Origin: a virus
UHGV virus genome: UHGV-1356875
Length of the DNA: 41,292 bases
Direction: 5' to 3' (one strand)
Part shown: piece after piece, positions 1 through 41,235 of the stretch
Position numbering within the stretch: the first letter of the stretch is position 1
How the letters are laid out: each line of letters opens with the position of its first letter
Program-made: the position numbers and the translations under genes
Notes under the pieces: model-generated
The model's database searches: none
Told to the model about the DNA's origin: nothing
The model's input: only the letters and a program-made list of their open reading frames with translations

Positions 1-107
1 ATTTTTTTTATTAATTTCAGAACTTCGTCTATAGTATTTATGTGCATTACATAACCATCTTTTTTATTTTCTTCTACACAAATTTTGTAACTAGGTATTT
101 CCTGCAT
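1..107 (-). CDS. Partial early gene downstream of cro; its 3' end lies beyond the window edge. N-term MQEIPSYKICVEENKKDGYVMHINTIDEVLKLIKK...
   Basis: ATG at 105-107 on the - strand, about 8 nt after an AAGGAGG SD (~115-121). The frame stays open to position 1. Confidence 0.4.
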   Translation of the reverse strand, partial: MQEIPSYKICVEENKKDGYVMHINTIDEVLKLIKK

Positions 108-167
108 TTTAATTCCTCCTTATTAAGTTGTAATTCGTTCAATTTTTATAACCTCTTTTATTACGTT

Positions 168-395
168 TTAAACGTTATTGTTAGTTAAAAAAATAATGTC
201 ATTGTAAGTGACGTTAAATTCTTCTTCTATCTTTTGTAATTGTGGAATATTAGGGAATGTTTTAGCTTTTTCCCAATTGTGCCACACATCAGCAGAAACA
301 CCTACTTTCTTACCTGCCTGTGCTTGAGTTAAATCATATTTAGCACGCAACATTTTTAGAGTATAAGGTTCTTTTCTTACGTATGTTTCAACCAT
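168..395 (-). CDS. cro: Cro-like HTH_XRE transcriptional regulator
   Basis: HTH motif LTQAQAGKKVGVSADVWHNWEKAK. Divergent from cI. Its own promoter is TTGACA-17-TATACT with SD GGAGGTGA. The true start may be an internal Met. Confidence 0.7.
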   Translation of the reverse strand: MVETYVRKEPYTLKMLRAKYDLTQAQAGKKVGVSADVWHNWEKAKTFPNIPQLQKIEEEFNVTYNDIIFLTNNNV

Positions 396-425
396 TTTGT
401 CACCTCCTGTTGTAGAACTGGCTTT

Positions 426-454
426 AGTATATTACGGTTAAAACGTAATGTCAA
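426..454 (-). promoter_or_regulatory. Pcro. -35 TTGACA (449-454 rc), a 17-nt spacer equal to the operator palindrome TTACGgttaaaaCGTAA (432-448), and -10 TATACT (426-431 rc).
   Basis: Consensus hexamers read directly on the - strand. An SD and the cro ATG follow immediately. An operator dyad fills the spacer. Confidence 0.65.
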
Positions 455-482
455 CACTTAAACCGTACTTTTTATTTTTCAC

Positions 483-511
483 TTGTAATATTTACGGAAT
501 AATCGTATAAT
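483..511 (+). promoter_or_regulatory. PcI. TTGTAA (483-488), 17-nt spacer, TATAAT (506-511), with a second operator dyad TTACGgaataatCGTA (492-507) in the spacer.
   Basis: Hexamers and spacing read directly. cI starts 36 nt downstream. The half-site TTACG is shared with the Pcro operator. Confidence 0.6.
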
Positions 512-546
512 GAATTTAAGTTATTAGATGAAGGGATTGAAAATAA

Positions 547-1173
547 ATGCTAGGAAATAAACAAGTAATGGCTAAAAATATTTCTCGTCTTATGAAAGAA
601 AACAATATCAATAGAAAGAAACTTTCAAATGATTTAAAAGTAAAGTATACAACTTTGTCAGATTGGATAAATGCAAAAAATTATCCACGTATTGACAAAA
701 TAGAATTACTTGCTGATTACTTTAATGTAACTAAAGCTGATTTGGTAGAAGATAAAGAACAACAAGTATTAGAAACACTACCAGTCAAAAAAATTCCAGT
801 CGTTTCAAAAATATCTGCGGGCTTACCTATCTATAGTGAAGAAAATTTAATTGATTACATATACTTTGCTACCAACAAACTTAATTCAGATAAAGAAGAA
901 TTTGGTTTAAAAGTGTCTGGCGATAGTATGGATAAGATTTTCCAAGACGGCGATATAGTTGTGGTAGAAAAAGATTCTATAGTAGAGAATGGTCAGTTAG
1001 GCGTTGTTATGATTAATGGTTATAACGCGACTGTTAAACGTATTAGATACAATGGTGACCAAGTTATATTAATTCCAGAATCAAACAATACAAACCACTA
1101 TCCACAGGTATATGGCAAAGATGACGAAGTAAAAATAATTGGTAGAGTTGTAGCAAGTCAAAAGTTATTTTAA
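547..1173 (+). CDS. CI-like repressor: N-terminal HTH_XRE plus C-terminal S24 (LexA-like) autopeptidase
   Basis: N-terminal HTH. Candidate Ala-Gly cleavage site (ISAGLP), Ser motif GDSM and the catalytic Lys region (TVKRI), all typical of S24 repressors. Confidence 0.8.
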   Translation: MLGNKQVMAKNISRLMKENNINRKKLSNDLKVKYTTLSDWINAKNYPRIDKIELLADYFNVTKADLVEDKEQQVLETLPVKKIPVVSKISAGLPIYSEENLIDYIYFATNKLNSDKEEFGLKVSGDSMDKIFQDGDIVVVEKDSIVENGQLGVVMINGYNATVKRIRYNGDQVILIPESNNTNHYPQVYGKDDEVKIIGRVVASQKLF

Positions 1174-1217
1174 TGAAAAGTCAATTTAATAAACTACATG
1201 CAAAAAGGGGACTATGA

Positions 1218-1385
1218 ATGAAGATTTTAAACTATCATATTAGCTATGATCATATTGAGGATTTATACACTGTTACAGCCGAAACTGATAACGGAAAAAC
1301 TTTTTGCTACACATTTTCAGATATGTATACTTTAAAAGAGGTTAGAGAAACGTTAGAGAGAATTGCACGTGAGATAGATAAATAA
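1218..1385 (+). CDS. Small hypothetical protein, 55 aa (MKILNYHISYDHIEDLYTVTAETDNGKTFCYTFSDMYTLKEVRETLERIAREIDK)
   Basis: SD AAAAGGGGA lies 6 nt upstream of the ATG. The stop is 3 nt before the CapA-like ATG, so the two look co-transcribed or translationally coupled. Below the ORF-track cutoff. Confidence 0.4.
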   Translation: MKILNYHISYDHIEDLYTVTAETDNGKTFCYTFSDMYTLKEVRETLERIAREIDK

Positions 1386-1388
1386 ACC

Positions 1389-2546
1389 ATGAAGAAGGTA
1401 TGTAAATTGAAAAAAATAATAGCTATAATTTTTTTTAGCCTATTAGCAGTTATGACTATAATATTTGCTGAAATTGACACCCACTTTAATCATGAAAAAG
1501 TTTCTTTTGTTGCAGTTGGAGATAATTTAATTCATCCAGTTGTTTATAACGATGCAAAAACTCATCACAATGACTATGATTTTTCATCAATGTATAAAAA
1601 CGTTAAACCTTATATAAAAAGATTTGATATTGCTTACATCAACCAAGAATCACCAATGGGAGGGGATGATATACCTTATTCAGGTTTTAAAAGGTTTAAT
1701 ACTCCTAGCGATTTGTCGAAATATTTGGTTGAATCAGGATTTAATTTAATTAACGGATCAAATAATCATGCTCTCGATAAAGGTACACATGGCGTTAATC
1801 ATAGAGTTAATCTATGGGAAAAGTATAAAGAAAAAGGAGTTATGTTCACTGGTGTATACAAGTCTAAAAAAGATAATGAGAAACTTCAAATTATAAATAA
1901 AAATGGAATAAAGATAGCAATACTTAATTATACATTTGGTACTAATGGACTTAAACCAGAAAATAAATATCAAATTAATTATTTGAATGAAAATAAAATA
2001 AAGCGAGACGTCAAATACGCTAAAAAATATAGTGATGCTGTCATCGTTTCAACTCATTGGGGACAAGAAAGTCATCATTATCCAAATAAAAAACAAGAAA
2101 GATATGCTAAAATATTCGCAAATTCGAATGTCGATGCAGTAATAGGTATGCATCCTCATGTAATCCAACCGGTAAAATGGGTAAAAGGTAAAAATAATCA
2201 CAAAACACTGGTAATTTACTCATTAGGTAATTTTTTAAATGGTCAAAACACTGGTAATGAAAGTAATAATCTTTGTGGTAGCATAAACTTCGATATAACA
2301 AAAAAAGGACAGAAAATTGTGATTAAAAATGTTCATTGGAAATCCTTAGTAAATTACTATAAAGAAAGAATACCAGGCAATAAAGATTCTAGATATGATT
2401 TTACTGTTTACCCACTAGACAAATACAACGACAAAATAGCAAATGAACATGGTATGCAAAGTGGTGAAAACAAGGATATGACTAAAGAACATATGGAAAG
2501 AATTACTAATGAAATTATTGATAAAGAATTTTTAAAATCTAACTAA
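1389..2546 (+). CDS. CapA / PGA_cap-family (poly-gamma-glutamate synthesis) metallophosphatase-fold membrane protein; cargo gene
   Basis: N-terminal TM helix. Blocks VAVGDNLIH, DIAYINQESP, NGSNNHALDKG, STHWGQE, IGMHPHVIQP and YSLGNF match CapA/YwtB-type calcineurin-like proteins. Confidence 0.6.
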   Translation: MKKVCKLKKIIAIIFFSLLAVMTIIFAEIDTHFNHEKVSFVAVGDNLIHPVVYNDAKTHHNDYDFSSMYKNVKPYIKRFDIAYINQESPMGGDDIPYSGFKRFNTPSDLSKYLVESGFNLINGSNNHALDKGTHGVNHRVNLWEKYKEKGVMFTGVYKSKKDNEKLQIINKNGIKIAILNYTFGTNGLKPENKYQINYLNENKIKRDVKYAKKYSDAVIVSTHWGQESHHYPNKKQERYAKIFANSNVDAVIGMHPHVIQPVKWVKGKNNHKTLVIYSLGNFLNGQNTGNESNNLCGSINFDITKKGQKIVIKNVHWKSLVNYYKERIPGNKDSRYDFTVYPLDKYNDKIANEHGMQSGENKDMTKEHMERITNEIIDKEFLKSN

Positions 2547-2565
2547 ATTTGTGGATAGTTTAAGA

Positions 2566-2733
2566 AGTAAAAAAGATAACCCCAGGCACATAGGAATGCT
2601 CAGTGCATATGCACCTACCCCTTTTCGGGACCCAGCGTTAATCCTTCTTGAGTTATCTTAATTATATTATAAGTTACATTAATTATTATTTGAAGAGTAA
2701 ATTATCGGGTAGCTCGCCTACCCTATACTTTTG
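2566..2733 (+). repeat. Copy A of a ~165-bp conserved intergenic element. Conserved 5' block, internal promoter-like TTGAGT..TATAAG segment, then 3' hairpin GGGTAGCtcgcCTACCC plus a U-run.
   Basis: About 75-80% identical to 4400-4566. Both copies start at the stop codon of the upstream cassette ORF and end just before the SD of the next gene. Confidence 0.7.
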
Positions 2734-2916
2734 ATATATAAGGAGTGCAAAATAATAAAAAAGTTTTTAGCTTTAATTTTTAGCGGTGCTTTAATTTTAG
2801 GCGCATGTGACACTAAAGATGTGGAAGATAGTACAAAGAAAAAGAAAGATCCTAAAACTGAAGTGGATGATAAAGGTAGAGTTAAGGGTGAAAAAATTGA
2901 AAAAGCGCTAAAATAA
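2731..2916 (+). CDS. Small lipoprotein, mature ~40 aa and Lys/Asp-rich. The likely real start is ATA at 2752 or 2755 (signal MIKKFLALIFSGALILGAC).
   Basis: Lipobox ILGAC. SD AAGGAG (2740-2745) lies 6-9 nt before ATA ATA. The TTG at 2731 used by the ORF track has no SD and sits inside the terminator U-run. Confidence 0.55.
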   Translation: MIYKECKIIKKFLALIFSGALILGACDTKDVEDSTKKKKDPKTEVDDKGRVKGEKIEKALK

Positions 2917-2982
2917 TATTTCACAGATTAATTATTTTACCATTCTAGTGGCTCTTTAACATAAACAAAGGAGGATGTAAGT

Positions 2983-3387
2983 ATGTTCGAAAAACTATTA
3001 ACTTCAATAGGTATAGAATCATTAAAAATAAACACTGTGTTAAAAACACAACAAGTTCATAGTAAAGGTATTTTAGAAGGAAGTGTCATAATAGAAAGCG
3101 CCGCATCTGAACAAACTATTAACCAGATTGAGCTTACATTAATTGAAAGATATGATAATCCCGATGAGCGAAGTCAATTTCCTATTTTAGATAATGAATT
3201 ACAAACATTCACTTTACACGTAGACCGTAGTATATGTGAAAATACCAAAGAAATTGAACATTTCCAATTTAATATTCATGAACTAGAATTTAAAACTAAT
3301 CCCAATAAATTAATTTTAAAAACACATGCTTACCTTTCTCATTCTGTTGATGCTTACGATGAAGATGAAATAAGGTTGATTGATTAA
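2983..3387 (+). CDS. SpoOM-like (sporulation-control Spo0M family, arrestin-like) short protein
   Basis: N-terminus MFEKLLTSIGIESLKINTVL...EGSVIIE parallels the Spo0M N-terminus (MSFFKKLASVGIGAAKVDT...). SD AAAGGAGGA lies upstream. Confidence 0.45.
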   Translation: MFEKLLTSIGIESLKINTVLKTQQVHSKGILEGSVIIESAASEQTINQIELTLIERYDNPDERSQFPILDNELQTFTLHVDRSICENTKEIEHFQFNIHELEFKTNPNKLILKTHAYLSHSVDAYDEDEIRLID

Positions 3388-3428
3388 TTGTGTTCTACTT
3401 TTTCAACATAAATAAAGGAGGTTGAGGT

Positions 3429-4412
3429 ATGGAGAGAGAAAATTTGAAAGAGCGTTTGTTACTTAAATGTCAAGAAGCATTTATTATGGGTTTGGAATTG
3501 TATAATAAACCTACAATTAAATATAGAATTGAAGGTTTCTCATTCTTTATATGTAATGCTTGGGAGTTAATGTTAAAAGCTAAATTATTGAAAGACGATA
3601 TTTCTATTTATTATTCAGATAACCCAAACAGGACTTTGAATTTATCTGATGTGATTAAAATTATCTATACTGATAAAAATCAACCATTAAGAATAAACTT
3701 AGAAAAGATTATAGACTTGAGAAATATTAGCACTCATTTAGTTACAGAGGATTATGAAACTGTTTATGCTCCTTTTTTTCAAGCTAATATTTTAAATTTT
3801 TCGGAACAACTACAAAAATTTCATGACATAGATATAACTAGAAAAATACCTCAAAATTTTTTAAGTTTGTCTGTAAATATGGATATATTAAACAATGATG
3901 AAATACGTGGGAAATATTCACCAACCATTGCCGAAAAGTTAATAACTCAAAAAAATGATTTAGAAGTTGCGCAAGAAACAAATAGTTCTAATTCATTAGT
4001 TATTCCTTTACAAAACACAATAATTATTACAAAAAATCCTAAAAACGCTGATTTTTCAGTAAATGTTTCAAGTGGTTCAGAAAATAACGCTAAAATTTTA
4101 AAAGAGTTAAAAGATCCTAACGATAAATACAGATTAAGTTTTAACAATGTAATTAAAGGTGTTAACAAACAGTTAAAAGCCAAAAACTTAAAATTCAATT
4201 ATTACGATAAAGCTAACGATAAAAATGAATTTAATCAGTATACTTTAAGTTTAATAATAAAATTCTACAATTTAAAATTTGACGATAAATATGCATATCA
4301 TTTTGCAAATCTAACTAGGTATTCTCAACAAATTGTAGATTTTATAGTTAAAGAAATAAAAAATGATCCAAATATAATTAATAACATAAAAAAAGCAAAT
4401 AAAAAAAGATAA
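3429..4412 (+). CDS. 327-aa protein with a HEPN-like R-x4-H motif (LRNISTHL). Possible AbiD/AbiF (Abi_2)-like abortive-infection protein. C-terminal half is N/K-rich.
   Basis: N-terminal block ELYNKP...YRIEGFSFFICNAWELMLKAKLL, then RNxxxH as in HEPN/Abi_2 families. Strong SD AAAGGAGG. Confidence 0.4.
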   Translation: MERENLKERLLLKCQEAFIMGLELYNKPTIKYRIEGFSFFICNAWELMLKAKLLKDDISIYYSDNPNRTLNLSDVIKIIYTDKNQPLRINLEKIIDLRNISTHLVTEDYETVYAPFFQANILNFSEQLQKFHDIDITRKIPQNFLSLSVNMDILNNDEIRGKYSPTIAEKLITQKNDLEVAQETNSSNSLVIPLQNTIIITKNPKNADFSVNVSSGSENNAKILKELKDPNDKYRLSFNNVIKGVNKQLKAKNLKFNYYDKANDKNEFNQYTLSLIIKFYNLKFDDKYAYHFANLTRYSQQIVDFIVKEIKNDPNIINNIKKANKKR

Positions 4413-4566
4413 CCCCAGGGTCATAGGAATTCTCAGCTTTCGCCTACCCCCATTCGGGGACCCAGAGCTAATCCTTCTCGAGTTATCTTAAATACATTAT
4501 AAGTTACATCGAGTATTATTTCAAGAATAATTTTACGGGTAGCATGCCTACCCTTATTATTTTTTA
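4400..4566 (+). repeat. Copy B of the ~165-bp conserved element. Hairpin GGGTAGCatgcCTACCC plus U8, immediately upstream of the int SD.
   Basis: Aligned by eye to 2566-2733 with conserved blocks GATAACCCCAGG, CATAGGAAT.CTCAG, CCTACCCC..TTCGGGACCCAG, TAATCCTTCT.GAGTTATCTTA, ATTATAAGTTACAT and CGGGTAGC..GCCTACCC. Confidence 0.7.
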
Positions 4567-4590
4567 CTTTTTTAAGGAGGAACACGGAAA

Positions 4591-5640
4591 ATGGCAACAT
4601 TTACAGTAACAAAACGCAAAAATAAGACAAGTTCATCATGGCAATATGATGTTAAACACCCTAGTTTGAAGTCTGGTAAAAAACGTAAATCTGGTTTTAA
4701 AACAAAAGCTGAGGCTACTAATGCAGCACAACAATTAATTAGAGATTTAGAAGATGGCAACAACATTGAAGATAATAAAAAATTCATCGACTACTACGAT
4801 GACTGGATAAAAATTAAGAACAAGAAACAGTTGTCTAGCAAACAATTCTACTGGTATGAAAGATCGATTAAATTATTCAGTGAGTATTTCGGAGAAAATA
4901 TGTTAGTTAAAAATATCACACGTATTGAGTATCAAAAGTTTTTAAATCAATACGCACAAGGTCACACTGATGAAACAGTAAGAAAAGTTCACGGTTGTCT
5001 TGCTAGATGTATTAGAGACGCGTTATACGATGGCTATTTGAAGAAAGACCCTACTTATAATGTAAATATCAAAGGGACTGAAAAAGCTAAAGATGAGAAA
5101 TTTAAGTTTATTACGATAAAAGACTATTTAAACTTGCTAGATTATTTCAAGAAAAGAGATGAAGAAAGTTATGTTTTGCTATATCTATTAGGCATTACTG
5201 GCGCAAGATATAGCGATGTCATCAATATGACTTACAAAGATCTAAACAAAGCGAATGGCATAATTCATTTGCCTGGAACGAAAACAAAGAATTCAAAACG
5301 TGATGTAGAAGTTAATTCAAAAGATATCATACACATAAATTCAAAATTAGCTAAAATGCCGCGTAGAATTGATGGCAAGTTATTCTCTGTTAGTCATACA
5401 TCAGTAGGTAAAGCATTTAGAAAAGCAAAAGAAGTGATAGGATTAAACGATAATAATATAACTCCCTATTCACTCAGACATACGCACACATCTTACTTAC
5501 TATCTAAAGGCATACCAATCGAGTATATAAGTAAACGTTTAGGTCACGCTACTATATCACAAACGTTAGACACGTATTCACATTTATTAGAAGAACATAA
5601 AAAAGAGCAAGGCCAACGTGTTAGAGAAATATTCTCTTGA
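4591..5640 (+). CDS. int: Tyrosine recombinase / phage integrase
   Basis: C-terminal catalytic region YSLRHTHTSYLL...GHATISQTLDTYSHL (the R-H-R-Y family signature). SD AAGGAGG. Confidence 0.85.
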   Translation: MATFTVTKRKNKTSSSWQYDVKHPSLKSGKKRKSGFKTKAEATNAAQQLIRDLEDGNNIEDNKKFIDYYDDWIKIKNKKQLSSKQFYWYERSIKLFSEYFGENMLVKNITRIEYQKFLNQYAQGHTDETVRKVHGCLARCIRDALYDGYLKKDPTYNVNIKGTEKAKDEKFKFITIKDYLNLLDYFKKRDEESYVLLYLLGITGARYSDVINMTYKDLNKANGIIHLPGTKTKNSKRDVEVNSKDIIHINSKLAKMPRRIDGKLFSVSHTSVGKAFRKAKEVIGLNDNNITPYSLRHTHTSYLLSKGIPIEYISKRLGHATISQTLDTYSHLLEEHKKEQGQRVREIFS

Positions 5641-5825
5641 CACTTATTTGACACTTACTCTATCGAAAGCCCGTCATATCAACGGTATAGTACGGAAACG
5701 GAGGGATAAATTTAATTTTCTAAACAACTGTAAAAAGGCTTAACTACAGTATTTTTAGAGATTTATTTTCTGACTAGACCTAAATAAGTATAACTATTTT
5801 GACACGTATTTGACACGTGCACACA
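5640..5825. repeat. attP arm-type direct repeats: TTGACACTTATTTGACACTTA (5640-5663) and TTTGACACGTATTTGACACGTG (5797-5820)
   Basis: Four TGACAC(T/G)T copies directly 3' of int. Typical of Int arm-binding sites. Confidence 0.45.
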
Positions 5826-5832
5826 AAAAATT

Positions 5833-5857
5833 ACCACGCTCATAAAGAACGTGGTTA
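5833..5857 (-). terminator. Hairpin ACCACGCTCATAAAGAACGTGGT, with the A-run on the + side giving a U-run on the - strand. Duplicated at 6077-6101.
   Basis: Inverted repeat read directly. Two near-identical copies lie 244 bp apart between the lysin end and int. Confidence 0.45.
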
Positions 5858-6076
5858 GTAAATAAATACATGAAAAACTGAGATGAGAGAAAAGTTAAAT
5901 TGTATATATATAAATTAGCACATTAAAGAATATAAAGTAAATGGTTAACTAAAAATAATATCTTTATATTAGATTTCACATAAAAAAGGATAGCCATTAA
6001 GACTACCCTTCTGTGAAATGACTAGCAAATTAATTATAACATAGTTGTGACAGAAATTGTTGCGTTCGCAAAAATA

Positions 6077-6101
6077 ACCACGCTCATAAAGAGCGTGGTA
6101 G
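6077..6101 (-). terminator. Second copy of the ACCACGCTC-ataaag-AGCGTGGT hairpin (perfect 8-bp stem). Likely late-operon terminator.
   Basis: Perfect dyad flanked by an A-run (+) and therefore a T-run (-). Confidence 0.45.
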
Positions 6102-6305
6102 CAAAAAAATTATAAAGGAGTATAAAAAATTAAATTGTATGTAATTTAATTATAGCACAGACCGTGTAACCAATGTAGTGTTAAACCATGTTTTTTAATA
6201 TCAATCTAACATCTTCATATTATAGACATAATTAATTGTAATTTATAAGAGGGTAGCCATAGCAACTACCCTTGTATAATGACGTGGTAATTGTATTATA
6301 ACAGA

Positions 6306-7769
6306 TTAATTGATTGTACCCCACAATTTCCCTAAACTGTCATTTGTTTTATTCCATGTTCTCACAGCTAACCAAACGTCATTACCATTATAAGCTGTAT
6401 AACTCACCCAAACGTGACCGTCTTGTTTACACACAGTGTCATATTTTATTGTTTGACCTGGCTGTAATACACCGCTCACAGGACAACTTCTAAACGGCCC
6501 AACATAATGAGTTTTAATAGGAGTGTTTGGCGTAAAGCGAGCTATTTCTGATTTGTAATAAGTTCCATACTTATTGATTTTCCAACCGTTTATATCTCGT
6601 CTATTAGCTGGAGTGGAAGCACTGCCAGGTTTGTTTTTAACTGTAGTAACTTTAGGTGTACTGCCTTTCATATATGCCCTAATTTGCTTAATAAAGTAAT
6701 CTTTTAACTTAAGTTGTGTTGCCTTAGTCCATGCTTGTTTTGTTGGATCAATACCAGTATGCAATTTAGCTGAACGATGAGGACAAGCTGTATAACTAAA
6801 TTCGTTGTGTAAACGAACAGTATTTCTGTTAGCTGGTAACCCCCACTTTTTAAGTTTATGCGCTGCGAATTTAAGAGCTGTTTGTTCATTTTTAAGGAAA
6901 TCTTTATCGCTTACGTACAATGATTGATTAACTTCAATTCCATAAGTTTCAAAATTACCTGAACCCGGTTGAACGCCATCAGAAACATGCCAAGCAATTC
7001 TATCTTCTGATATAGCTTCCCAAATACCGTTTCTATCAGCATATGCGTGAGCTATACCTCTTGCTAATCTACTGTAATCAGCGTTTACTAGATTGCTATA
7101 GTATTGCTTTGAATTCATTGTACCAGCATCGTTATGAATAACTACAGCTTTAGGTTTACGACCTCTTTTAGTCATAGTCCAACCTTTTATATGATTAGTG
7201 TTAACTTTGATGCTACTATTTTCCTTAACTGACTGTTTAGGAGCTGATTTTGCATTATTTTTAGGTGCTTCTATTTCTTTCGCTACAGGCGGAACAATAA
7301 AGTGTGTTAAACCATAATAGTTATCCCATCGTAAGCTAGGCTTTTTATTAGCCCAGCCATTCCAATTTTGTTCAAGTATTTGGAAGGAGTTCGTATTACC
7401 ACCTTCATACACTATACCTATATGACCATAACGCGAATAAATTCCAGATGTATATACAGCTATCCAACCTTTTTTGGGTACCGTTGACGGTTTATTTTCT
7501 ACAATCTTCCACTCTTTAGGGAATTTATTCATTAAAGAGCTTTTAGCATCGCCCCACATTTCTGTTTGATTATCAGTTAACCACATTACATAATCTATCG
7601 CCAAATCCATACACTGTGCGTGATAAGCACGATCTTTATCAATGCATCCTGGTTCCATAGCACCAAACGAAGCGTCATAACTCGTCCAACGTTTAACTCT
7701 GTATGGACTATCTACTACACCGTTTTTATAATCTCTTAAACGTTTATTGATTTGAGATTGTGTTTTCAT
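6306..7769 (-). CDS. Endolysin: CHAP peptidase, Amidase_2 and C-terminal SH3b
   Basis: N-terminal CHAP region resembles the LysK/phi11 lysin (cf. DSPYRVKK..YHAQC..KKGWIAVFTSG..HIGIV..QNWNGYANKKP..DNYYGLTHFI). SH3b-like C-terminus. Strong SD GGAGGAGGAG before the internal ATG at 7769. The ORF-track start at 7823 overlaps the holin. Confidence 0.85.
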   Translation of the reverse strand: MKTQSQINKRLRDYKNGVVDSPYRVKRWTSYDASFGAMEPGCIDKDRAYHAQCMDLAIDYVMWLTDNQTEMWGDAKSSLMNKFPKEWKIVENKPSTVPKKGWIAVYTSGIYSRYGHIGIVYEGGNTNSFQILEQNWNGWANKKPSLRWDNYYGLTHFIVPPVAKEIEAPKNNAKSAPKQSVKENSSIKVNTNHIKGWTMTKRGRKPKAVVIHNDAGTMNSKQYYSNLVNADYSRLARGIAHAYADRNGIWEAISEDRIAWHVSDGVQPGSGNFETYGIEVNQSLYVSDKDFLKNEQTALKFAAHKLKKWGLPANRNTVRLHNEFSYTACPHRSAKLHTGIDPTKQAWTKATQLKLKDYFIKQIRAYMKGSTPKVTTVKNKPGSASTPANRRDINGWKINKYGTYYKSEIARFTPNTPIKTHYVGPFRSCPVSGVLQPGQTIKYDTVCKQDGHVWVSYTAYNGNDVWLAVRTWNKTNDSLGKLWGTIN

Positions 7770-38337: not shown

Positions 38338-39186
38338 ATGGATCCTATAATTGGTAAAGGTTTAGACAAAATTATTGAAGGTGCTGCTGATGGCCCTATT
38401 AAAACCTTAAATACTACATGGGATTTAATATTTGGTGGCTATCATAATTGGGTTGCTAAAAAACAATATAAGCGTCAACAAGATTTAGAAAACTTTAAAG
38501 CTAATATTGAAGCCAAAGTAAAAAATATACCTAGAGATAACTTAAAAGAACCTGAACTTTCAATAATTGGTCCAGCAATAGAGAGTTCAAAATTCTACAT
38601 TAGTGAAGAAAATATTAGAGAACTTTTTTCTAATTTAATTGCTGCTGCTATGGATGATAGTAAAACAAATGAAATACATCATTCATTCGTTGAATTAATA
38701 AAACAAATGTCTCCTAAAGATGCCGTTTTATTCAAATCCCTTTGTAATCGAGATGCAATTCCTGCTGTTAGGTATAAAGCAGTAAAAGGTAATTATTTGG
38801 GAATGAACTTTTTATCAGATGTTGTAATAAATAATTCTCCATTAACTATTGCTGATACAGAGATTGCATTGAATAACCTTGAAAGAATTGGTTTGTTAAA
38901 AATTGACATTGGGACTAACTATTACACTGATAAAAGGCATTATAATGATTTTTCTAGTTATGAATTTATCGATAAATTTACGAAGCAATATGAAAAAATT
39001 GAACATGATGATTACAGTGATACCTTTTATTTAATTAATCTTTTTGGTGTCGATGCATTAGCTAGTCGTCACAATGTATCTACTGAAGAAATTTATAACT
39101 TAGTAAAACCAGCTTGTATTGAATTCGATAAAGGAATGATAGAAATAACTGCTTTTGGTAAAGCGTTTATCCACTGCTGTTTCTAG
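38338..39186 (+). CDS. Abi-alpha / DUF4393-like protein. Opposite strand to the early operon, with its own extended -10 promoter (TGtTATAAT, 38290-38298).
   Basis: N-terminal region GPAIESSKFYISEENIRELFSNLIAAAMD matches my recollection of the Abi_alpha family core. SD GGAGGTG. Confidence 0.35.
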   Translation: MDPIIGKGLDKIIEGAADGPIKTLNTTWDLIFGGYHNWVAKKQYKRQQDLENFKANIEAKVKNIPRDNLKEPELSIIGPAIESSKFYISEENIRELFSNLIAAAMDDSKTNEIHHSFVELIKQMSPKDAVLFKSLCNRDAIPAVRYKAVKGNYLGMNFLSDVVINNSPLTIADTEIALNNLERIGLLKIDIGTNYYTDKRHYNDFSSYEFIDKFTKQYEKIEHDDYSDTFYLINLFGVDALASRHNVSTEEIYNLVKPACIEFDKGMIEITAFGKAFIHCCF

Positions 39187-39578: not shown

Positions 39579-39917
39579 GTGCTTACTAATGAAGCTGAGT
39601 TCGTTTTGCTTCAACTTTATCGTTGTTATGAAGACGATCTTCAAGATGGTAAAAATAAAAGTGAAGCAAGGTATTTCGAAGATGAACATAGTGTTCGCGA
39701 TAATTACTTTATTGGAATAGATTCTGAAGATTTTCATTTAGCTCTAAAGGAACTTTCAAGCTACGGTTATTTAAATACACCGAAATCAACAATGGATGGC
39801 TACCCAGAATTCATACTTGAACCATCAGCTATAGCTGAGATGCAAAATCGCTACACGAAGAATCTAAATAAAGTATTAAAAAGGATTAACGAATTGAAAA
39901 AGTTAATTCTTTTTTAG
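39579..39917 (+). CDS. Hypothetical protein; likely GTG start after SD GGGAGGTGA
   Basis: Protein-like composition. Divergent from the 39312-39518 gene, with a TATAAT-containing intergenic region. Confidence 0.4.
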   Translation: MLTNEAEFVLLQLYRCYEDDLQDGKNKSEARYFEDEHSVRDNYFIGIDSEDFHLALKELSSYGYLNTPKSTMDGYPEFILEPSAIAEMQNRYTKNLNKVLKRINELKKLILF

Positions 39918-40136
39918 CCCCACTACTTCCCAATCATCTGCTAATAAGTCTTCTGCCATTGGTTGCCATAATGGATAGAAGGCTTTTTGTCTTGGTTTCA
40001 CGACTACATATCCATAACTGTTTGTAGGTAAAAGTTCTAAGTTGTCACCCGGTTTTTTAAATGTGTCAAATTCAGACGAGCGATAAATCGGTTTACCATT
40101 TTTCATAGCTAATTTAGTCGCCTCTTGAATGTTCAT
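39903..40136 (-). CDS. Small conserved phage protein (MNIQEATKLAMKNGKPIYR...)
   Basis: ORF with an SD. Resembles a common small staphylococcal phage ORF. Confidence 0.4.
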   Translation of the reverse strand: MNIQEATKLAMKNGKPIYRSSEFDTFKKPGDNLELLPTNSYGYVVVKPRQKAFYPLWQPMAEDLLADDWEVVGLKKN

Positions 40137-40176: not shown

Positions 40177-40923
40177 TTAAAGTTCTTCCGCTAAAAATTT
40201 ATTAATAAAGTATTGTTGTCCTTTACCTGTTACTTTTGGCGTCTTACTAATTGATGTATGACCATCTGAATGTGTGATTGATGTTTCCTTAATTTCGAAC
40301 AACTCACGTTCCATTGAGTATTGTGTCGGCATGTTGTAGTCGACACCTTGACGTTTAATTAAGAAACCGTTTTGTCGTAACCATTCAAACAATCTTCGTT
40401 GTCCGATATTGACACCATTCTGTTTAATGATTTTCGCCAACTCACCCACTAAGATAGAAGTTTTTGTTGTAGCTACTGCGTCTGCGAATAACACTTTAGG
40501 TTTGTTTTTCTCAATTTGTGTTTCAAGTTGATTAATTGTGTTATTAGCCATCTTCAATGCGCGTTTCATAATCATTTCTGGACTATTCCATGCTTTTTCT
40601 ACTTGAATGAAATATTGTCTTGCGCGTTTACCAGGTTCACTACGTTGGATCATTGCGATTTCTTTTGCGGTATCTAATGTTAGTGCATGGTCAAAATAGT
40701 TAATCGCGTTACCTTGAGCTGTTACTCTTTTTTGAGTAAGAGCTGTATAATCGTTATTTTCTTCAAAACCGTAATTAATCATTCTCTCGAACCAATCGTT
40801 ATATCTCGTCTTAACTTCTAATGCTTTATGAAGTTCTCGACCACTTATTGCGATTTCTCCGTCTTCTTTTTCTTGAATGTTGAACATTTCTCCGATGTTC
40901 GATTTAGTTTGTAAATCTTGCAT
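40177..40923 (-). CDS. Antirepressor (AntA/Bro-N-like N-terminus plus KilA-C C-terminus)
   Basis: ISGRELHKALEVKTRYNDWFERMINYGF (N-terminal domain) and LFADAVATTKTSILVGELAKII...QRRLFEWLRQNGFL (KilAC). SD AAAGGAG before the internal ATG at 40923. Confidence 0.65.
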   Translation of the reverse strand: MQDLQTKSNIGEMFNIQEKEDGEIAISGRELHKALEVKTRYNDWFERMINYGFEENNDYTALTQKRVTAQGNAINYFDHALTLDTAKEIAMIQRSEPGKRARQYFIQVEKAWNSPEMIMKRALKMANNTINQLETQIEKNKPKVLFADAVATTKTSILVGELAKIIKQNGVNIGQRRLFEWLRQNGFLIKRQGVDYNMPTQYSMERELFEIKETSITHSDGHTSISKTPKVTGKGQQYFINKFLAEEL

Positions 40924-40971
40924 ATTGTTTATGCTCCTTTCTGCTATACTCCTTATAAGGAGGTGATAAGT

Positions 40972-41235
40972 ATGAAAAGTTATGTCGTTTCTTATGATTT
41001 GAATAACCAAAAGGATTATTCAAAGTTGATTAAAGCAATAGAAGATTATCCTAACTCTGCAAAAATCAATAAGTCTGTTTGGTTCATTAACTCAGAACGC
41101 AGTGCCAAGTCCATTCGAGATGAACTGAGAGATTTTATTGATAATGATGACAGCTTATTTGTAGCTACATTAACAAGTGAAGCTGCTTGGCGTAATGTCA
41201 TTTGTGGCTCTAGTCATTTGAAATCACATCTCTAG
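40972..41235 (+). CDS. Small (88 aa) ferredoxin-like Cas2/VapD-like protein
   Basis: MKSYVVSYDL...SVWFINSE...DSLFVATL mirrors the Cas2 beta1-alpha-beta pattern (MLVLVTYDV...NSVFEC...DSLRVY). Strong SD AAGGAGGTGA. Terminator downstream. Confidence 0.35.
   Translation: MKSYVVSYDLNNQKDYSKLIKAIEDYPNSAKINKSVWFINSERSAKSIRDELRDFIDNDDSLFVATLTSEAAWRNVICGSSHLKSHL

Follow-up and report, generated by a model that had tools for sequence, protein, structure and literature searches.

A cargo slot between cI and int in a Staphylococcus prophage

We analyzed a window of 41,292 nucleotides, the whole of the viral stretch UHGV-1356875. Positions 2731-4412 of this window are cargo of a Staphylococcus prophage, lying between cI (547-1173) and int (4591-5640). 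The features of the region are:

2547-2580, plus strand: relic of a second-type DUF3644 gene, comprising its final ~30 nt, which align with the S-CoN_Ph25 gene (L023) at its 3' end
2565-2660, minus strand (2660→2565): orphan second copy of a small RNA (sRNA) gene; covariance model (CM) R1, 101.1 bits, E = 2.9e-23
2666-2694, minus strand: promoter of the orphan sRNA, TTCAAA-17-TATAAT, 10/12 match
2731-2916, plus strand: gene 1, small lipoprotein ORF with lipobox LILGAC and a mature part of ~35 charged residues
2983-3387, plus strand: gene 2, mini-Spo0M, 134 aa; PF07070, 1.4e-14, profile positions 1-133 of 213
3429-4412, plus strand: gene 3, HEPN(DUF3644)-REase-like protein of 327 aa, the proposed effector or toxin
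4398-4490, minus strand (4490→4398): structured sRNA gene, ~93 nt; CM R1, 94.3 bits, E = 1.6e-21
4496-4524, minus strand: promoter of the sRNA, σ70-type TTGAAA-17-TATAAT, 11/12 match
4532-4560, plus strand: int-proximal junction ("part B" of the flanking element), with a promoter-like site for int and a hairpin plus T-run in the spacer

Genes 1 to 3 all lie on the plus strand, separated by spacers of 66 and 41 nt, with strong Shine-Dalgarno (SD) sequences before genes 2 and 3 and no terminator-like site found between the genes of the block. The original prediction placed three co-oriented genes between cI and int. Their orientation and position are as described, but cI and int are separated by five ORFs rather than three; a 55-aa ORF and a PGA_cap/CapA-like gene (no PADLOC match) lie upstream of the first flanking element. 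The conserved elements said to bracket the genes are also present, as two copies of a ~155-nt element (2569-2724 and 4402-4554; 83-91% identity). What had gone unrecognized is that they encode the conserved RNA partner of gene 3: each copy holds one ~93-nt structured sRNA gene on the minus strand.

In part B of the element, the hairpin at 4537-4553 and its T-run resemble a terminator for upstream transcripts, and a second copy of the hairpin lies at 2707-2723. Part B is common to many of 285 matched Staphylococcus phage records, some of which lack the sRNA portion (part A) and carry other cargo. Alternative cargos occupy the same slot in related phages, supporting the earlier view of the cI–int slot as a hot spot for cargo and defence genes.

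Gene 3 encodes a DUF3644-family HEPN protein

Pfam assigns the N-terminal part of the gene 3 product to PF12358 (DUF3644; 181.5 bits, gathering cut-off 27.6) and the C-terminal part, previously described as an N/K-rich tail, to the recognized domain PF18740 (EC042_2821 REase-like; 94.8 bits, gathering cut-off 24.9; E = 4.8e-27). The Rx4H signature that had been noted is R98-N-I-S-T-H103, placed where one helix of the bundle ends, in which R98 and H103 are invariant and N99 nearly so across 91 sequences, and the protein has the all-alpha, up-and-down helical bundle of a HEPN fold. Together, these data support the identification of gene 3 as a HEPN gene. The AbiD/AbiF-like affiliation proposed for it did not survive: we found no Abi_2 match even at E<=1 and no RF03085 motif in an Rfam scan, and the family is instead DUF3644/EC042_2821. 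DUF3644 is a HEPN domain, and the HEPN/EC042_2821 family was described as a predicted conflict or defence nuclease (Anantharaman et al. 2013; PMC3710099). The best explanation for gene 3 is a HEPN ribonuclease of this family, its RNase activity being predicted. A Foldseek search of the whole gene 3 model against the PDB, C-terminal domain included, gave no significant match; neither a PDB sequence search with the gene 3 family profile nor an NCBIfam search with genes 2 and 3 returned a match.

In PADLOC, the gene 3 product matches PDC-S19 (PDLC04952) with 446 bits across its full length, in line with its nomination as a defence candidate. PDC-S19 is a single-gene candidate in that resource, and with both PF12358 and PF18740 the gene 3 product is a full-length member. 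Our literature searches found no paper under the name PDC-S19, and so no validation, and none on DUF3644/EC042_2821 that reports an RNA. PDC-S19 is thus listed without an RNA component in the literature found, whereas here an sRNA accompanies the gene.

Within residues 229-327, only P230, F268, and Y298 are invariant, and Y258, L273, Y280, K283, S299, Q301, F305, and I310 are at least 90% conserved. No acidic position reaches 90% (D229 stands at 81%), and the combination of conserved acidic and lysine catalytic residues that marks a PD-(D/E)xK domain is not found there. The fused REase-like domain is therefore probably non-catalytic, as judged from these alignments.

Genes 1 and 2 are independent accessory genes

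As predicted, gene 2 is Spo0M-like: its product folds as a beta-sandwich resembling an arrestin N-lobe and carries an invariant D-x-YDED motif at the C-terminus. It matches residues 6-129 of B. subtilis Spo0M (PDB 5cl2), and Foldseek returned 5cl2 (3.5e-7) together with arrestin N-lobes, including those of arrestin, ARRDC3, and VDUP-1. Spo0M has ~250 aa and two lobes (PF07070), whereas mini-Spo0M has the fold of the N-lobe and no C-lobe. The mini-Spo0M family measures 123-136 aa throughout, apart from one 93-aa fragment, and occurs only on mobile elements of Staphylococcus and Mammaliicoccus. A literature search for "Spo0M" with "phage" found nothing relevant.

Gene 1 does carry the lipobox of the small lipoprotein that had been called, but its reading frame has no methionine start: the codon after the SD (AAGGAG, 2740-2745) is ATA (2752/2755) where relatives have ATG. 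The likely original start is 2755, and TTG at 2731, the sole canonical start, precedes the SD. The ATA is kept in 10/10 identical prophages checked. Homologues of 53 aa with an ATG start occur at L029 (5455-5616) and L031, and the gene is of chimeric origin. It has no Pfam match (Lipoprotein_Ltp included).

The original prediction joined genes 1 to 3 into one three-component exclusion or abortive-infection system, in which the lipoprotein would be the membrane sensor, mini-Spo0M the adaptor, and the HEPN protein the RNase. Co-orientation, short gaps, and the lack of an internal terminator fit such a system, as does the retention of the whole block in many near-identical prophages of the S. epidermidis group; moreover, mini-Spo0M and the 53-aa lipoprotein are neighbours in two gene orders, one here and one at L029/L031. 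However, these prophages all encode identical proteins and therefore represent one lineage, and at greater distance the trio splits. Phages of S. aureus, Listeria, and Corynebacterium, as well as Streptococcus satellites, carry gene 3 on its own, either beside int or at another position, and the DNA homology with S. aureus phages begins only at 3416, just ahead of the gene 3 SD. Mini-Spo0M, cast as a partner, is found without any DUF3644 gene in other prophages, PICI-like satellites, and one chromosomal islet. The small lipoprotein likewise occurs elsewhere without gene 3. As for a membrane partner, the annotated loci that we inspected in phages and satellites have no gene for a lipoprotein or other membrane protein accompanying gene 3, and the lipoprotein ATG is lost here. 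Finally, neither gene 1 nor gene 2 has a PADLOC match. Gene distribution thus already largely refutes the three-component system, which we regard as very improbable. Mini-Spo0M is an independent accessory gene, and so is the lipoprotein, possibly a decaying one. We best explain 2731-4412 as accessory cassettes, independent of one another, that are stacked in the cI–int slot of a prophage from a coagulase-negative Staphylococcus.

A structured RNA is encoded opposite the 3' end of gene 3

The unit to which gene 3 belongs reaches past 4412, to a minus-strand sRNA and its promoter. The sRNA gene is convergent with the HEPN gene and covers its last 15 nt (4398-4412), stop codon included. The RNA folds into five helices with a three-way junction closed by P1, followed by a U-run. 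In our alignment, compensatory changes occur at 13 of the 25 base pairs, and 97-98% of cells are paired; none of 500 shuffles matched the observed values, and slid controls reached 32-54% paired. Canonical pairs number 1764/1818 in the minus sense and 1499/1818 in the plus sense. Because the minus sense contains 286 G·U pairs and only 21 A·C, we assigned the sRNA to the minus strand; the same asymmetry rules out a plus-strand RNA. The nucleotides of the junction and the loops are invariant across the alignment, which goes beyond what a plain cis-antisense RNA needs. The sRNA is thus a structured non-coding RNA on a defined strand, supported by covariation. Its 3' end is uncertain, since some GC-rich loci (e.g. 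L055, L087, and L036) have no U-run behind P1.

The -10 box of the promoter ends ~6 nt ahead of the first P1 nucleotide. A promoter match of at least 10/12 is found at the same place in 60/83 loci, compared with 1/83 after shuffling, and in 72/83 loci the -10 box and P1 are 6-10 nt apart. Promoter, structure, and strand asymmetry are the features that suggest transcription of the sRNA.

Rfam returned nothing at E<=1 over positions 1-6500 and, on 4390-4520 alone, gave only a chance lncRNA match (15.5 bits, gathering cut-off 48); ARAGORN identified no tRNA or tmRNA. The sRNA represents a new family, found in no RNA-family catalogue. We rejected a resemblance to the hammerhead three-way junction, as the core (CUGAGAA/CUGAGCA) by eye lacks the essential G8 and Rfam is silent. 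We also rejected a small ORF inside the element: its AUG is not conserved (UUG and ACG variants), and ORF lengths differ (19 vs 37 aa).

The RNA is linked to the HEPN gene across a broad clade

The sRNA lies at the 3' end of the HEPN gene, always on the opposite strand, in 80/80 genome loci, which were chosen by protein alone, and it is present at all 77 viral loci with downstream sequence. Within the clade examined, we found no HEPN gene without the sRNA (157/157 loci linked), a complete linkage to which the physical overlap between gene and sRNA might have contributed in part. Identity is 72-93% for the RNA, compared to 45-59% for the protein. The clade spans Staphylococcus, Streptococcus, Listeria, lactobacilli, clostridia, Bifidobacterium, phages of Corynebacterium, and several MAG lineages, with some phylum assignments depending on MAG bins. 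Neither E. coli genomes nor distant plasmid DUF3644 genes (23-27% identity) have a copy of the sRNA.

These loci bear on whether the element is an RNA partner at all, or instead a plus-strand 3'-UTR or terminator, a small ORF, or a DNA junction or regulatory site of the integrase module. Its position between cargo and int in phages, the sharing of part B among many Staphylococcus phage records, some with other cargo, and the duplicate copies bracketing a cassette would all suit an integrase-module element. Yet the downstream neighbour is a recombinase at 31/73 genome loci and no recombinase adjoins the other 42, and where the same int occurs without the HEPN gene, the sRNA is missing too; a tie between sRNA and integrase is thereby ruled out. 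A plus-strand reading would turn the 286 G·U pairs into A·C mismatches, and the internal AUG and ORF length are not conserved. An element of these other kinds is already contradicted by these data, and we give it almost no credence.

Orphan RNAs with relics of the gene

The second sRNA copy (2660→2565) has no adjoining HEPN gene. It is a distinct allele of the S-CoN_Ph25/S. edaphicus type and groups with L023 and L093 in the alignment. The relic that overlaps it immediately follows the CapA-like gene's stop codon, and a 1-nt loss in an A-run breaks its frame. Viral contigs contain further orphan sRNAs flanked by analogous relics. Of 81 RNA-side matches, about 20 are orphans in which 25-40 nt of the ORF survive as a relic, a total that leaves out L131, L168, and L183, where the gene is present. 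These orphan RNAs are intact by CM (87-107 bits), and 13/20 have a promoter match of at least 10/12. The asymmetry between gene and RNA, with orphan RNAs but no RNA-less gene in the clade, is typical of toxin/antitoxin pairs. The copy at 2660→2565 is probably the remnant left when other cargo replaced a second-type HEPN gene, and may still neutralize cognate toxins in trans.

A model for RNA control of the HEPN protein

The best explanation for the functional unit is a two-part one: the HEPN gene (3429-4412) and the opposite-strand sRNA with its own promoter. We favour, as moderately probable, a HEPN toxin or defence effector under the control of an RNA antitoxin, a function that we infer from sequence. 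Expressed from the lysogenic (cI-side) transcript, the HEPN protein would be a latent toxin or abortive-infection effector, and an abundant sRNA would silence it, mainly through direct binding of the folded RNA to the protein as in type III systems. Added type I-like routes might be antisense pairing with the 3' end of read-through mRNA and interference by convergent transcription. If an invader (phage or plasmid) or loss of the element lowered the level of the sRNA or displaced it, the HEPN site (R98/H103) would cleave RNA and growth of cell and invader would stop. Binding and inhibition of the protein in a type III-like manner are suggested by the conservation of the fold, the lack of variation in the loops, and the asymmetry seen with the orphans. 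Type III antitoxins proper are tandem-repeat RNAs processed by the toxin; this sRNA is present as a single copy per gene, with no tandem repeats.

The sRNA could instead be a cis antisense regulator only, acting through mRNA 3'-end pairing or transcription interference with no protein contact. In the type I pairs txpA/RatA and bsrG/SR4 of B. subtilis and SprG/SprF of S. aureus, a convergent antisense RNA overlaps the 3' end of the toxin gene and has its own constitutive promoter; such pairs are frequent on prophages. The toxins of these pairs are small hydrophobic peptides, and the antitoxin RNAs show little conservation. Our locus resembles the 3'-overlapping pairs txpA/RatA and bsrG/SR4 in its architecture: the genes converge, the sRNA overlaps 15 nt of the ORF, as an antisense RNA to a toxin mRNA does, and its complementarity would be complete if the mRNA ended at the 4537-4553 hairpin. 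Here, however, the proposed toxin is a soluble enzyme of 327 aa, and both the sequence and the fold of the RNA are retained across phyla. Complementarity comes free to any cis-antisense RNA and leaves unexplained a conservation above that of the protein, the compensation within helices, and the invariant loops; nor does cis regulation account for intact, promoter-bearing orphans with no cognate mRNA. We consider regulation in cis alone unlikely. Separately, we rejected trans pairing between the sRNA and the translation-initiation region of the gene, which was no better than internal or shuffled controls.

Another alternative makes the sRNA an obligate subunit of the HEPN-REase, as scaffold, sensor, or specificity factor, with the ribonucleoprotein (RNP) as the active defence particle. 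The strict linkage at 157/157 loci and the very high conservation at unpaired positions agree with such a role. Since the C-terminal REase-like domain lacks invariant acidic residues, it would be free to serve as a nucleic-acid-binding module. Against this, intact orphan RNAs are frequent and an RNA-less gene is never seen, a pattern that fits an antidote better than a cofactor, and distant relatives in the literature function without such an RNA. An obligate subunit therefore seems quite doubtful to us. A broader proposal would make the ~93-nt RNA a new class of defence RNA: in an obligate RNP with the HEPN-REase, it would act as a sensor or switch that is displaced, cleaved, or out-competed by the invader's nucleic acid or protein, or would program specificity, rather than being a passive antidote. 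Which proteins and RNAs are cognate would depend on allelic variants of P2/P3, and orphans such as 2660→2565 would be mobile decoys against toxin or defence that competing prophages and satellites exchange. This broader proposal is rather unlikely in our judgement.

Comparison with known HEPN systems

Two DUF3644 proteins have been reported as working single genes, with no RNA noted. HEC-08 defends against phage and requires the histidine of its Rx4-6H motif (bioRxiv 10.1101/2024.01.29.577857), and Ishtar, with an N-terminal HEPN domain (DUF3644 or DUF4145) and a C-terminal alpha/beta domain, clears plasmid RP4 (bioRxiv 10.64898/2026.07.06.735840). Both share the N-terminal DUF3644 HEPN domain with the gene 3 product and act against mobile elements, but HEC-08 has zinc-finger C-terminal domains in place of an REase-like C-terminus. 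Ishtar comes from E. coli, acts on RP4, and is monogenic as reported; because E. coli genomes have no copy of the sRNA, such distant relatives work without it.

A close parallel to an antitoxin RNA is AbiF/RCd22 of the C. difficile phi027 prophage, a type III-like pair in which an Abi_2-family HEPN protein is neutralized through direct binding by the ~100-nt ncRNA RCd22 (PMC12373285). Both loci combine a prophage HEPN protein with a structured ncRNA of about 100 nt that has a promoter of its own, which for RCd22 is a SigA promoter accompanied by a terminator. RCd22 lies upstream on the same strand, is co-transcribed, and contains two abiF motifs (RF03085), whereas the sRNA described here is downstream and convergent, with a single three-way-junction fold and no Rfam match. 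The proteins also belong to different HEPN families.

In location, a close counterpart is Tha, a HEPN system of Staphylococcus prophages that occupies the same slot and is held off by an overlapping antisense gene (PMC11087260). Tha/Ith, from the S. aureus prophages 80alpha and phiNM2, shares with our locus the slot next to int in a siphophage lysogeny module, as well as the pairing of a HEPN RNase effector with a small overlapping antisense gene. Tha, however, has a C-terminal HEPN domain (184-296) and an uncharacterized N-terminus, the reverse of the domain order in gene 3, and ith encodes a protein, whereas the antisense product here shows RNA covariation and no conserved ORF.

Implications for DUF3644 HEPN proteins

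DUF3644/EC042_2821 HEPN proteins have been catalogued as single-gene candidates, and relatives tested as single genes; within the clade examined here, they always come with a convergent structured sRNA. If our model is correct, the ORF cloned alone may give toxic, silent, or misleading results. The pair would then be a widespread RNA-controlled HEPN module alongside AbiF/RCd22 and Cas13-type systems, and intact orphan RNAs, one of them in UHGV-1356875, would represent a traffic of antidotes or decoys between competing mobile elements. RNA databases would also gain a clean, testable new family whose covariance model could serve to mark the cI–int cargo slot.

Genomic setting of the cassette

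The window is the genome of a temperate siphophage of the S. epidermidis/coagulase-negative Staphylococcus type. Its nearest records are S-CoN_Ph18-24 and the vB_SepS_BE21/phiIPLA5-like phages, and many comK-adjacent prophages encode proteins identical to its own.

Features of the lysogeny module and early region

168-395, minus strand: cro
547-1173, plus strand: cI
1218-1385, plus strand: 55-aa ORF (phrog_17674) directly after cI; small conserved lysogeny-module gene, role unassigned
1389-2546, plus strand: PGA_cap/CapA-like gene, 385 aa (PF09587, 1.9e-62; phrog_23677), with an N-terminal hydrophobic segment
2569-2724: element copy 1, after the CapA-like gene and before the trio
2731-2916, plus strand: gene 1, small lipoprotein
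2983-3387, plus strand: gene 2, mini-Spo0M
3429-4412, plus strand: gene 3, HEPN/DUF3644
4402-4554: element copy 2, between the trio and int
4591-5640: int
Past int, opposite strand: endolysin and holin
38338-39186, plus strand: Abi_alpha protein (PADLOC PDC-S47, 2.1e-45)
39903-40136, minus strand: Tad2-like anti-Thoeris protein (1.4e-11)
40918-41235, plus strand: Cas2-like ORF, 105 aa (PF09827, 1.5e-08), between the antirepressor and cro

The CapA-like gene, also present in S-CoN_Ph18-24, is cargo between cI and an orphan small RNA (sRNA), and its product may be tied to poly-gamma-glutamate capsule metabolism in S. epidermidis. A 67-aa ORF (MKILN...) before int in another prophage locus (L029, 5660-5863) is possibly related to the 55-aa ORF. 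Between int and the endolysin gene, two hairpins with 81% identity (5826-5868 and 6070-6112), terminator-like on the minus strand, probably flank attP. The early region holds additional defense/counter-defense cargo in its Abi_alpha, Tad2-like and Cas2-like genes.

Gene 3 encodes a HEPN protein independent of genes 1 and 2

The original prediction proposed a novel three-gene lipoprotein/Spo0M/HEPN system, a candidate for prophage defense or superinfection exclusion; as one system, the trio is not supported. The three ORFs exist, share one orientation with short gaps and no terminator-like site between them, and are flanked by a ~155-nt direct repeat (the two element copies); the idea of the cI-int slot as a defense hot spot is also supported. 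The gene 3 product is a HEPN-family protein, with matches to DUF3644 (1.6e-53) and EC042_2821 (4.8e-27) in Pfam, to PDC-S19 over its full length in PADLOC (1.8e-134), and to phrog_9605, which has no assigned function. The predicted HEPN signature is present (RNISTH), and neither R98 nor H103 varies across 91 aligned homologues. The accompanying label "AbiD/F-like" was not borne out, with no Abi_2 match in the Pfam scan, and the supposed N/K-rich tail is in fact the REase-like EC042_2821 domain. In the classification of Anantharaman et al (2013; PMC3710099), DUF3644 is the EC042_2821 family of HEPN proteins and carries, fused at its C terminus, a novel domain of REase fold. This C-terminal domain is probably a binding domain rather than an active nuclease, since the family alignment shows no invariant acidic residues in it.

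Genes 1 and 2 are independent of gene 3. S. aureus phages B_UFSM1-5, FJ04 and phiSabovST1 share 87% DNA identity with the window only from 3416, the gene 3 Shine-Dalgarno (SD) site, to the start of int, and carry different small ORFs upstream. Gene 3 homologues stand alone in Streptococcus Javan satellites and prophages, a Listeria phage, Corynebacterium phages and S-CoN_Ph25. Conversely, mini-Spo0M occurs in the L029 lysogeny module, in PICI-like Mammaliicoccus satellites (L032-34), 3' of lysis genes in Mammaliicoccus phage phi31 and in a chromosomal islet, and the DUF3644 gene is absent at all of these loci. Genes 1 and 2 may thus be loosely linked as a pair, and neither travels with gene 3.

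The SpoOM-family assignment of gene 2 was confirmed, with the match covering just the profile's N-terminal half; family members are steadily 123-136 aa long, apart from one 93-aa fragment. A frame-shifted Ltp-like surface-protein pseudogene (PF07553, weak; L026, 4680-4990) lies 5' of a chromosomal mini-Spo0M homologue, a hint that mini-Spo0M often lies beside exclusion-type envelope proteins. The lipoprotein ORF is likewise real but lacks an ATG: its SD sequence AAGGAG (2740-2745) is followed by ATA ATA AAA AAG, with ATA ATA at 2752-2757 where homologues (L029, L031, L133) have ATG, and this replacement is fixed in 10/10 identical prophage copies checked. The protein belongs to a 53-aa family whose gene lies downstream of mini-Spo0M in L029 and L031. 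By sequence the window copy looks like a chimera: the signal peptide matches a 249-aa lipoprotein gene at 89% identity, and the mature part matches the 53-aa gene at 79.5%.

A conserved structured RNA is encoded opposite gene 3

When 4402-4590 was compared with phages by blastn, its first ~100 nt proved 74-82% identical to the sequence that follows Streptococcus homologues sharing only 47-52% protein identity. Protein similarity was the sole criterion by which we gathered 80 genome loci, from Bacillota of many orders, Bifidobacterium, and MAGs labelled Saccharibacteria, Paludibacteraceae, Fusobacterium and Gastranaerophilales. Proteins at these loci are 45-59% identical to gene 3 (one staphylococcal locus, 87%), and the element lies directly 3' of the stop codon in all 80, at 71-96% nucleotide identity (72-93% leaving out the closest Staphylococcus locus and one 71% outlier).

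The alignment shows evident covariation, and RNAalifold predicts five helices with 25 pairs in all. Helix P1 closes a three-way junction that also bears the interrupted stem P2a/b/c and two hairpins, the conserved P4 and the length-variable P3. Canonical pairing reaches 97.0% of cells, with compensatory changes at 13 pairs (133 cells); none of 500 shuffles attains the observed values, and slid alignments are 32-54% paired. An independent viral sample aligned with the covariance model replicates the fold (98.0% paired, 13 compensatory pairs). In the minus sense, 1764 of 1818 cells pair (286 as G·U), versus 1499 of 1818 in the HEPN-gene sense, where G·U pairs become A·C mismatches; this asymmetry places the sRNA convergent to the HEPN gene.

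The sRNA has its own promoter, in the window a σ70-type site (TTGAAA-17-TATAAT, 4524..4496, minus strand) just upstream. Matches of at least 10/12 occur in 60/83 loci, compared with 1/83 after shuffling, and in 72/83 the end of the -10 box precedes the first P1 base by 6-10 nt. A U-run, which on the other strand encodes the Lys-rich ORF end, follows P1 in AT-rich hosts; a few GC-rich loci lack it, so the placement of the 3' end is uncertain. The HEPN stop codon lies within P1. We found the sRNA described in none of the papers that could be searched and in no Rfam family.

The RNA follows the gene but also persists alone

The covariance model finds exactly two copies in the window, 4490->4398 (94 bits) and 2660->2565 (101 bits). 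Two copies ~1.3-1.6 kb apart also occur in Streptococcus loci L057 (2332-2425, 3957-4050) and L092 (2657-2750, 3984-4077); duplication of the RNA around cassettes thus recurs. The int-proximal part of each element (part B; 4532-4560 and 2702-2729) carries a promoter-like site whose spacer contains a terminator-like hairpin, GGGTAGCxxGCCTACCC. Part B, just upstream of int at 4532-4560, is common to many of 285 matched Staphylococcus phage records, including phages with different cargo and without the sRNA-coding part A, and looks like a portable terminator-plus-promoter junction delimiting cargo cassettes.

Linkage between gene and sRNA is strict and one-sided. Searching from the protein side, we found the sRNA at the HEPN gene in 80/80 genome and 77/77 viral loci; three further viral loci without a match all end at a contig edge. 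The sRNA was absent at distant DUF3644 genes on actinobacterial and proteobacterial plasmids, and in E. coli. It is not tied to int, because recombinases (26 tyrosine, 5 serine) make up only 31 of 73 downstream neighbours, and phages sharing int but carrying other cargo lack part A.

A pattern search from the RNA side gave 81 occurrences in viral contigs, ~57 gene-adjacent and ~20 orphans. Most orphans retain the final 25-40 nt of the HEPN ORF, and their covariance-model scores are undiminished (87-107 bits), with promoters mostly intact. The 2660->2565 copy is such an orphan, and 2547-2580 is a frame-shifted relic of an S-CoN_Ph25-type gene end. In three IMG/VR loci (L121, L157, L192), an ORF with an N-terminus that by eye resembles Abi_2 (AbiD/F) replaces the DUF3644 gene 5' of an intact orphan sRNA; HEPN-type cargos may therefore swap in the slot, with the RNA staying.

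A candidate RNA-controlled HEPN toxin

We propose that the gene 3 protein would be a latent RNase toxin or defense effector, and the sRNA its antidote or regulator. By analogy with AbiF/RCd22 (PMC12373285), in which an RNA neutralizes a HEPN protein by binding it directly, we favor direct, type III-like binding, because conservation of sequence and fold exceeds what cis-antisense action needs and the orphans are intact. A type I-like contribution from antisense or convergent transcription is likely as well. Tha/Ith of S. aureus prophages (PMC11087260) is the closest positional analogue, and the relatives with experimental support are HEC-08 (bioRxiv 10.1101/2024.01.29.577857) and Ishtar (bioRxiv 10.64898/2026.07.06.735840). 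The real feature of this locus is a widespread two-part HEPN-REase/sRNA module accompanied by an orphan sRNA, probably a new member of the RNA-controlled HEPN toxin systems, and one that can be tested directly.
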